Source: Escherichia coli
GTDB taxonomy: Bacteria > Pseudomonadota > Gammaproteobacteria > Enterobacterales > Enterobacteriaceae
DNA length: 64,000 bases
Direction: 5' to 3' (one strand)
NCBI RefSeq assembly: GCF_003991155.1
Contig: NZ_CP031293.1
Below are positions 12,001-15,000 of the stretch, piece after piece (position 1 is the first letter of the stretch; each line of letters opens with the position of its first letter). Made by a program: the position numbers.

Positions 12001-15000
12001 AAACCTTACGCAATGTTCTGTGTATGCTGACCTTGCTTAATCGCACCGATATTCCGGTAGCAAGCGGTGCGGTAAAACCATTAATGCGTGATTTGATTAT
12101 CGCGGACAATGTGCACGGCGAAAGCGGTCTCGACGGCCCGGCATTACCGGAACCGACGTTCGCACCGCAAAACTGTACGGCGGTGGAGCTGATGGCGAAA
12201 ACGCTGTGTGAAAGTGAGGAACCTGTCACCATTGTTTCTACCGGACCGCAAACTAACGTTGCCTTGCTGCTCAATAGCCACCCGGAACTGCATAGCAAAA
12301 TTGCCCGTATCGTGATTATGGGCGGCGCAATGGGGCTTGGTAACTGGACGCCTGCGGCTGAATTTAATATTTACGTTGACCCGGAAGCGGCAGAAATTGT
12401 CTTCCAGTCAGGGATCCCGGTGGTGATGGCCGGTCTGGATGTTACTCACAAAGCACAAATTCACGTTGAGGACACCGAGCGTTTCCGCGCCATTGGCAAC
12501 CCTGTTTCAACCATTGTTGCCGAACTGCTGGATTTCTTCCTCGAATATCATAAAGACGAAAAATGGGGCTTTGTCGGCGCACCGCTGCATGACCCATGCA
12601 CCATCGCCTGGCTGTTAAAACCGGAGTTGTTTACCACTGTTGAGCGCTGGGTTGGCGTGGAAACACAAGGGAAATATACCCAAGGTATGACGGTTGTTGA
12701 TTATTATTATCTGACTGGCAATAAACCGAATGCCACTGTAATGGTCGATGTTGATCGTCAGGGCTTTGTTGATTTACTGGCCGATCGTCTGAAATTTTAC
12801 GCTTAACACACGTCATTGATTAAGATCACCACGCGTTACCTGGGTGGTCTTAATCTGTTTATCTCTTTTTCTTTCAAGATATAAATGCAATGGATAATGC
12901 AGAACTCGCCATTGGTATCGATCTCGGTACTACCAATAGTTTAATTGCCGTCTGGAAAGACGGTGCCGCGCAATTAATTCCAAATAAGTTCGGTGAATAT
13001 TTAACACCATCCATAATTAGCATGGATGAAAATAATCATATTTTAGTCGGAAAACCGGCTGTATCACGGCGTACTTCGCATCCGGATAAAACGGCAGCGT
13101 TATTTAAACGTGCAATGGGCAGTAATACCAACTGGCGGTTAGGCAGCGACACATTTAACGCGCCAGAACTGTCCTCTTTGGTATTACGCTCATTAAAAGA
13201 AGATGCCGAAGAATTTCTGCAACGTCCGATTAAAGATGTGGTGATCTCCGTTCCGGCTTATTTCAGCGATGAACAACGCAAGCATACCCGTTTAGCAGCG
13301 GAGTTAGCCGGGTTAAATGCGGTACGCTTAATTAATGAACCCACAGCAGCTGCGATGGCATATGGCCTGCATACGCAACAAAATACCCGCTCGCTGGTTT
13401 TTGATCTCGGTGGCGGCACGTTTGACGTCACGGTGCTCGAATACGCCACGCCGGTGATTGAAGTTCACGCCTCCGCTGGCGACAACTTTCTTGGCGGCGA
13501 AGATTTTACTCATATGCTGGTGGATGAAGTTTTAAAACGCGCCGCAGTGGCTAAAAACATGCTCAACGAAAGTGAGCTGGCAGCCCTGTACACCAGCGTG
13601 GAAGCGGCAAAATGTAGCAATCAATTACCGCTGCAAATTAGCTGGCAGTATCAGGAAGAAACGCGTGAGTGCGAATTTTACGAGAACGAACTGGAAGATT
13701 TGTGGTTGCCGCTGCTCAATCGCTTGCGAGTGCCGATTGAACAGGCGTTGCGCGATGCACGTCTGAAGCCAAGTCAAATCGACAGTCTGGTGCTGGTTGG
13801 CGGCGCATCACAAATGCCGCTGGTGCAGCGAATCGCCGTGCGTCTGTTTGGCAAATTACCGTATCAAAGTTACGATCCGAGCACCATTGTCGCGCTGGGC
13901 GCAGCAATCCAGGCCGCCTGCCGCTTACGCAGTGAAGATATTGAAGAAGTGATCCTCACTGATATTTGCCCCTACTCCTTAGGTGTTGAAGTTAACCGCC
14001 AGGGCGTTTCCGGCATTTTCTCACCGATTATTGAACGAAATACCACTGTGCCGGTGTCGCGAGTAGAAACTTACTCGACCATGCACCCGGAGCAGGATTC
14101 AATAACGATTAATGTTTATCAGGGAGAAAATCACAAAGTTAAGAATAATATACTGGTTGAATCCTTTGATGTTCCGCTGAAGAAAACCGGGGCTTATCAG
14201 TCTATTGATATTCGCTTTAGTTATGATATTAACGGATTGCTTGAAGTTGACGTGCTTCTGGAAGACGGCAGCGTTAAGTCCAGAGTCATTAACCACAGCC
14301 CGGTAACGTTAAGTACCCAGCAAATTGAAGAGAGTCGGGCACGGTTATCCGCATTAAAAATTTATCCGCGCGATATGCTCATCAACCGTACCTTTAAAGC
14401 CAAACTGGAAGAGTTATGGGCGCGGGCGCTGGGTGACGAGCGAGAAGAGATTGGCCGGGTAATCACCGATTTTGATGCGGCGCTGCAATCAAACGATATG
14501 GCCCGCGTCGATGAAGTTCGTCGACGGGCGAGCGATTATTTGGCCATTGAGATCCCTTAAACACGGCTGCCGGATGCGGCGTAAACGCCTTATCCGGCCT
14601 ACTCGAAGGTCGGATAAGATGCGTTAGCATCGCATCCGACGTTGAAGGATAAGATGCGTTAGCCTCACATCTAACTGAACAACATCGCGATTTTACCGAT
14701 CGCGTAACCTATCACCAGCACCGTTAAGCTGATTTTGATAATGCTGGTAATGCTCTGTGGTTTTTCATCCTCATCATTTTTTTCTTCGTGGTTTTCAGGT
14801 GTTGGCTCATCGACATCTTCATCCTCCGGCTCGAGTTTCACTTTCGTCAACAGCATCCGCGTGATAATGGCCTCTAATGGATGAGCATCTCCACCTTCCA
14901 GCCTTGTATTAAGACGGGCCAGCATCTCTTGTTTCGGGAACGCTTCCAGCACAACCTGTTCCGCTACCCGATACAAATCCAGTAACGGTGAATCTTGTTC

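Follow-up and report, generated by a model that had tools for sequence, protein, structure and literature searches.

What the short palindromic sequences between the convergent genes hscC and djlC are, and whether they matter for the expression of these genes, is the question raised by one intergenic gap in a 64,000-nt stretch of the Escherichia coli contig NZ_CP031293.1 (assembly GCF_003991155.1; the whole stretch is referred to below as the window). The initial annotation of the window described these sequences as three palindromic units of the repetitive extragenic palindromic (REP) type, forming a bacterial interspersed mosaic element (BIME). Results of our analysis indicate that they represent a non-autonomous family of repeats recognised by the domesticated Y1 transposase TnpA_REP (RayT), and that the label "atypical BIME" is the right one. 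With high confidence we assign them as an atypical BIME-2-like cluster, in which a perfect y REP (unit 1) is followed, after a 2-nt linker, by an inverted REP variant of z2 length (unit 2) and by a decayed 35-nt tandem copy of the latter (unit 3), and which is predicted to protect the ends of transcripts and to damp the synthesis of HscC.

REP units and family membership

A search with the REP consensus confirmed both the presence of a REP-like cluster between hscC and djlC and its family assignment. The sequence GCCGGATGCGGCGTAAACGCCTTATCCGGCCTAC at positions 14569-14602 matches the 34-nt y-REP consensus GCCGGATGCGGCGTRAACGCCTTATCCGGCCTAC with no mismatch. It is the sole match to this consensus in the window when up to three mismatches are allowed, and none of 100 shuffled sequences contained any match; when the window was scanned more loosely for REP heads and tails, full elements were seen at the hscC-djlC locus only. 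According to Ton-Hoang et al. (PMC3333891), a conserved GTAG tetranucleotide is located 5' to the foot of the REP stem, and the orientation of REPs is defined by it. In unit 1, this tag is read as CTAC (14599-14602) on the + strand, that is, as GTAG on the - strand. The hairpin of unit 1 has a predicted energy of -21.3 kcal/mol on the + strand and -20.9 kcal/mol on the - strand (0 of 200 shuffles as good), and the minimum-energy fold of the - strand, in which GTAG comes first, contains a 2x2 internal loop, which is the internal mismatch typical of REPs. A two-base mismatch inside the stem is needed for the binding of TnpA_REP (PMC3333891), and such a mismatch is seen in units 1 and 2.

Unit 2 has the layout GAAG-GTCGGATAAGATGCGTTAGCATCGCATCCGAC on the + strand (36 nt) and is inverted relative to unit 1, a point absent from the initial annotation. 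The inverted repeats expected of a BIME connect positions 14571-14588 with 14621-14638 and positions 14589-14600 with 14607-14618. The hairpin of unit 2 (-20.7 and -19.7 kcal/mol on the two strands, with a 2x2 mismatch) was equalled by none of 200 shuffles. When unit 2 was aligned with a genuine z2 REP taken from the caiA-caiB BIME and with a copy that lies downstream of hypF, it proved to share the length and register of z2. Its outer stem reads TCGGAT/ATCCGA vs. CCTGAT/ATCAGG in z2, and the stems of the two differ by pair swaps at three places (C-G to U-A at 6-35, U-A to G-C at 8-33, and C-G to U-A at 16-25). All the stem differences are compensatory, the remaining ones being a single loop base and the tag; the number of pairs with both bases changed is 3 vs. 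0.8 expected, and no such pairs were found when the partners were slid. The TCGGAT...ATCCGA subtype is present, with a median of 4 places, in 5421 of the 5426 complete E. coli genomes that were searched, for instance downstream of hypF. The tag of unit 2 reads GAAG in the sublineage of the window alone, and GTAG in strains SMS-3-5, SBF22, 2017-02-2CC, and MOD1-EC7003.

Units 1 and 2 can also fold as one structure. The fold of the doublet (14566-14643) has an energy of -44.3 kcal/mol on the + strand and -41.8 kcal/mol on the - strand (z about -6.6; 0 of 200 shuffles as good), and the z values of the whole-region fold against shuffles are -6.2 (+) and -4.6 (-). In the whole-region fold of lowest energy, the djlC strand keeps separate hairpins; units 1 and 2 of this strand, folded alone, form one long hairpin.

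Of the three palindromic units initially proposed, two are palindromes of about -20 kcal/mol each, while the third is a non-palindromic, decayed copy of unit 2. The sequence GGATAAGATGCGTTAGC occurs exactly twice, at 14612-14628 and at 14647-14663 (0.19 matches would be expected even with 3 mismatches), as a part of an ungapped direct repeat of 25 nt (14612-14636 vs. 14647-14671; 92% identity, spacing 35). The outer 5' arm of unit 3 lacks four bases (GAAGG/ATAAG vs. GAAGG-TCGG-ATAAG), its 3' arm is decayed (CCTCACATCT vs. CATCGCATCC), and the GTAG tag is absent. Predicted folding energies of unit 3 (-5.4 and -6.7 kcal/mol) do not stand out from those of shuffled sequences, of which 50 and 21 of 200, respectively, were as good, so that the palindrome typical of REPs is not seen here. 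On the djlC strand, a weak 7-bp stem takes in the AG of the UAG stop codon. The claim that the last unit abuts the djlC stop codon proved accurate: the repeat ends with base 14671, with which the stop triplet CTA (14671-14673) begins. The end of unit 3 is formed by the stop codon and the last codon of djlC, and the cluster is extragenic except for its last five bases. A search of the window with Tandem Repeats Finder (TRF; minimum score 30) found no array, because only about 1.8 copies of the repeat are present there; the 35-nt period becomes evident only through the alleles of SBF22 and MOD1-EC7003.

Among known REP-containing structures, the cluster is close to BIME-2 and atypical BIMEs in the sense of Bachellier and Gilson (restated in PMC3333891). 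Like these, it combines a y REP with an inverted REP of z2 length through a very short linker, is intergenic at gene 3' ends, and varies in copy number between strains at one locus. It differs from BIME-2 in that the partner of its y REP is the TCGGAT...ATCCGA variant, three compensatory swaps away from z2, and in that the GTAG of unit 2 reads GAAG in the lineage of the window. The y REP with an inverted REP partner is also a likeness to BIME-1 elements, or RIPs (RIBs). However, the cluster lacks a z1 REP, has a 2-nt linker instead of the long L linker, and contains no IHF consensus; the z2 length of the partner, the short linker, and the lack of a match to WATCAANNNNTTR in the gap at up to one mismatch rule out this assignment. 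REPINs, which Bertels and Rainey reportedly described in 2011 as REP doublets forming a hairpin, resemble the cluster in its two close, inverted REPs and in the possible long hairpin of -44 kcal/mol. Unlike in REPINs, the doublet here joins a 34-nt REP with a 36-nt REP of another type, which makes the long hairpin imperfect.

No Rfam family was found in the cluster above its threshold. Matches to naRNA4 (RF02564), which we take to be the sole Rfam model derived from a REP element (REP325), were found within the whole window at this locus only and scored 42.5, 28.8, 25.2, and 23.5 bits, each covering one unit, vs. the gathering score of 59.5. The cluster is thus similar to naRNA4 in sequence and structure, but all the matches are below the threshold and of single units; with at most 42.5 bits they show REP-likeness only, and the membership in this described RNA family is ruled out. 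The annotation of K-12 was dropped as a test of REP identity. The copy of NC_000913.3 that was used lists no feature in the hscC-djlC gap, and it contains no REP repeat_region features, even at 5565-5669, a region that presumably carries the REP1 annotation in GenBank, which makes the absence of annotation uninformative.

Alleles of the hscC-djlC gap

The cluster is not fixed at its locus, as its form found in the window is present in only 76-78 of the 5426 complete E. coli genomes. The 110-nt allele as a whole was found in 76 of them at a coverage of at least 80%, and a query comprising the two tandem units in 78, in all cases at the hscC-djlC locus. A gap of 59 nt occurs in K-12, in O157:H7, and in nearly all genomes that bear the locus. 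A query of the 801 bases around the cluster matched 4370 genomes at a coverage of at least 80%, and all the sampled matches had the shorter span. Queries containing the REP found a median of 21-26 places per genome, which amounts to hundreds of thousands of matches across E. coli genomes. Genomes with the allele of the window have 6-15 megablast places for the REP query vs. the median of 26, and the window itself holds one REP cluster; this agrees with the low REP count published for the clade F strains SMS-3-5 and IAI39 (PMC3333891).

Some alleles contain additional units. In SBF22, an F-type strain whose HscC and DjlC protein accessions are the same as those of the window lineage, there is one more 35-nt unit, the gap is of 145 nt, and TRF detects a period of 35 with 2.7 copies of 96% identity. 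A slightly different 110-nt allele with another protein background is present in strain 2017-02-2CC. In the cryptic Escherichia strain MOD1-EC7003, the y REP is followed by three 35-nt units (four units in all; array of 2.9 copies) and by (CGGATGC)6, a perfect heptamer microsatellite of REP-arm sequence that separates the last 35-nt unit from the djlC stop codon. Escherichia sp. E1V33 has the short, 59-nt allele. The gap lengths among the alleles are therefore 59, 110, 145, and more than 180 nt. These two outgroups come from a small sample, in which one genome per species was scanned with a back-translated pattern of the HscC C-terminus; two species were matched, and the E. coli representative itself was not. 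The djlC genes of E1V33 and MOD1-EC7003 are about 88% identical to that of E. coli, and both allele classes are common to E. coli and other species, the short one being present in E1V33 and the array in MOD1-EC7003. An import of the long allele from a species similar to MOD1-EC7003 was considered as its source. Recent import of this kind is unlikely, because the flanks of the cluster in the window are closer to K-12 (93-94%) than to MOD1-EC7003 (84-88%).

The short allele of K-12 has the form GCCGGATGCGGCG-TAAA-CGCTGCATCCGGC and folds into a near-perfect hairpin of 13-14 bp (-28.8 kcal/mol). It is like the allele of the window in its position and in the first 20 nt of the REP (GCCGGATGCGGCGTAAACGC), which start 8 nt past the hscC stop codon; it has no REP internal mismatch, no GTAG/CTAC, and no second or third unit. 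The short allele resembles a REP doublet of which only the two outer arms, joined together, are left. The 21 nt located beside djlC in the short allele (ATCGGCGCAAAAAACACATCG) have no counterpart in the long alleles, so that we could not trace either allele to the other through a single change. Across the seven aligned alleles, which include those of both outgroup species, the hscC-proximal arm CACGGCTGCCGGATGCGGCGTAAA differs at one base in a single allele and is otherwise invariant, and every allele examined, long or short, in the three species has a strong hairpin beginning 8 nt downstream of the hscC stop codon. Such conservation of the arm fits a role for a hairpin at that spot.

The number of BIME copies at a given locus varies between E. 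coli strains, and recombination catalysed by TnpA_REP has been proposed as the cause (PMC3333891). In vitro, this protein cleaves at CT sites in the inverted REP (iREP) or in the linker (PMC3333891). Every added 35-nt unit lacks the TCGG of the outer stem, and the junction on the bottom strand is TTATCC/TTCAAC in the window (14641-14647), SBF22, and MOD1-EC7003. Candidate CT sites are CC/TAC at 14598-14602 and CC/TTC on the bottom strand at unit junctions; the resemblance of the junction motif CC/T to the C/T cleavage sites of TnpA_REP is speculative. The gap might record gain and loss of single REPs driven by TnpA_REP rather than replication slippage, an idea suggested by the CC/TT junction and by the changes of whole units between nearly identical strains. 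Possibly, it also represents a long-lived polymorphism that tunes the output of HscC and DjlC, since both haplotypes are common to E. coli and to cryptic Escherichia, with djlC only about 88% identical. We consider this scenario improbable.

Predicted effects on hscC and djlC and alternative explanations

Both convergent mRNAs would run into the cluster. By analogy with other REPs, its stable hairpins would block 3'-to-5' exonucleases and in this way set stable 3' ends; in the hscC RNA, the hairpin of unit 1 and the long hairpin of the doublet would be alternatives. Removal of REPs from 3' untranslated regions was found to shorten mRNA half-life, according to PMC12306157. The work of Liang, Rudd and Deutscher (2015), as summarised there, indicates that REPs located no more than 15 nt (fewer than 16) from a stop codon cause ribosomes to stall and lower the level of translation. 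With its foot at 14569, the first stem is 8 nt from the hscC stop codon (14558-14560) and lies within this distance, a likeness to the translation-damping REPs of the summarised study. Because of this position inside the 15-nt limit, the first stem would probably stall terminating ribosomes at hscC and lower the output of HscC. In the case of djlC, only the weak stem of unit 3 is within 15 nt of the stop codon, and the strong stem of unit 2 is 30 nt away from it, so that end protection is the only effect expected on this side. The extra units would be by-products of REP dynamics and not required parts. The RepRanger supplements covered here do not name hscC or djlC.

It is possible, although we find it rather doubtful, that the cluster is selfish or neutral repeat DNA without any effect on the expression of hscC or djlC, and that its size reflects only spread, slippage, and decay. 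The rarity of the long allele (76-78 of 5426 genomes), the different numbers of units in strains with identical flanking proteins, the decay of unit 3, which does not fold, and the mutated GTAG of unit 2 in the window lineage are what would be expected then, and the hscC/djlC module is very weakly expressed (PMC8215388). Neutrality accounts less easily for the strong hairpin kept at the 8-nt position in every allele, with a nearly invariant 5' arm while djlC next to the gap differs by about 12% between the species, and for the effects of REPs so placed on mRNA stability and translation in the experiments covered by PMC12306157. Several observations weigh against a BIME-2-like cluster acting on both transcripts. 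About 98% of the E. coli genomes that bear the locus lack units 2 and 3, and the full cluster is therefore dispensable. Concerted evolution of the REP copies, and not selection at this locus, could be the reason why the first arm is conserved. What is amplified in the cluster is a single REP in direct orientation, truncated by 4 nt and with a period of 35 nt, and not the y/z2 pair as in BIME-2. Finally, the GTAG tag has been lost from unit 2 in the window lineage.

The remaining explanations are less probable. GC-rich hairpins are located directly downstream of both stop codons, as they would be in a bidirectional intrinsic (Rho-independent) terminator common to the two genes, and a terminator role was among the functions initially suggested for the cluster. 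However, neither strand contains a U-tract, as runs of T and of A in the 110-nt gap do not exceed 2 and 3 bases, respectively, and a scan for terminators found none in the gap and two inside coding regions, no more than shuffles give. A terminator of this type is thus very improbable, and we do not retain that suggestion. At the level of DNA or the nucleoid, the cluster might, by analogy, be a gyrase or HU site relieving positive supercoils, or a source of nucleoid-associated RNA similar to naRNA4. Gyrase binds BIME-2, and the position between convergent genes, the y/z2-type BIME-2-like architecture, and the naRNA4 matches of 42.5 and 28.8 bits are in line with such a function; as those matches do not reach the gathering score of 59.5 and reflect REP-likeness only, and as most strains lack the second REP, we regard it as unlikely. 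The view that the palindromes arose by chance, or through a local duplication with no relation to REPs, is refuted for units 1 and 2 and has a negligible probability overall: unit 3 does fold at the level of shuffled sequences, and the window contains no array detectable by TRF, but the perfect match to the 34-nt consensus (0 of 100 shuffles), the hundreds of thousands of REP places in E. coli genomes, the compensatory changes with respect to z2, and the clear arrays of the 35-nt unit in relatives argue to the contrary.

Flanking genes and significance of the locus

The genes hscC and djlC are convergent, with a gap of 110 nt (14561-14670) according to the coordinates of their open reading frames (Table 1). 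E. coli 2016C-3878 carries the 801 bases around the cluster with 100% identity, and its annotation assigns them to the 3' ends of hscC and djlC. Over the 170 bases that have the gap at their centre, about 40 additional complete genomes do not differ from the window, and SMS-3-5, which was assigned to clade F by Ton-Hoang et al. (PMC3333891), has an identity of 99.4%; the window represents a phylogroup-F-type E. coli. DjlC is a J-domain protein that stimulates the ATPase of HscC, and DjlB, encoded at 17492-18919 of the window, is a paralogue of DjlC (PMC8215388). Since DjlC is the J-domain partner of HscC, the cluster is internal to the module formed by the two genes and does not, as had been proposed, mark a boundary of an hscC-associated module.

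Table 1. Coordinates of the REP cluster components and of the flanking genes in the window
Feature	Positions	Strand	Basis
hscC coding sequence, 556 aa, stop TAA 14558-14560	12890-14560	+	Open reading frame list; identical DNA annotated as hscC in NZ_CP029747.1
8-nt spacer, hscC stop to foot of the first REP stem	14561-14568	+	Sequence; fold puts stem start at 14569
Unit 1, y-type REP; + strand is iREP with CTAC 14599-14602, - strand is GTAGGCCGGATAAGGCGTTTACGCCGCATCCGGC	14569-14602	-	Consensus match and hairpin
2-nt linker TC, short, S-like, from unit 1 CTAC to unit 2 GTAG position	14603-14604	.	Sequence; allele alignment
Unit 2, inverted 36-nt REP of z2 length, GAAGGTCGGATAAGATGCGTTAGCATCGCATCCGAC	14605-14640	+	Inverted repeats, hairpin, z2 alignment
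Units 1 and 2, inverted REP doublet (REPIN-like), one possible long 72-nt hairpin	14569-14640	.	Fold
Unit 3, tandem copy of unit 2 with a 35-nt period, decayed and truncated at its 5' side; core without gaps 14647-14671	14641-14675	+	Direct repeat
djlC coding sequence, 483 aa, stop TAG (CTA on + at 14671-14673)	14671-16122	-	Open reading frame list; identical-DNA annotation

The identity of this region to K-12 is mosaic. Over positions 8429-17334 it is about 96% overall, with 88-91% in the 3' half of hscC and the gap and 100% at 12900-13199, and the block most diverged from K-12 (13500-14700) centres on the polymorphic REP locus. The annotation of E. coli O157:H7 strain 146N4 lists djlC as a pseudogene interrupted by an internal stop codon. 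Elsewhere in the window, the sroC small RNA, the cspA thermoregulator (- strand), the rnk leader, and STnc70 (- strand) were found above their Rfam gathering scores; the coordinates of these four regions, as listed, are 9440-9602, 38793-39241, 52220-52328, and 56091-56184.

The hscC-djlC cluster is a REP cluster of a long-known and catalogued family. Its location and predicted effects are ordinary, and the variation in its units between strains, like the pair of allele classes common to several species, illustrates the known dynamics of BIMEs; for annotation, it is one more REP/BIME locus in a species in which this family has been catalogued for decades. At such a polymorphic locus, expectations based on K-12 are not transferable to phylogroup F strains. 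The array of 35-nt units could be of use for typing, or as a convenient system in which to study gain and loss of single REPs. If the hairpin next to the hscC stop codon damps the synthesis of HscC, this would, by a mechanism already described, help to explain the scarcity of this specialised Hsp70.

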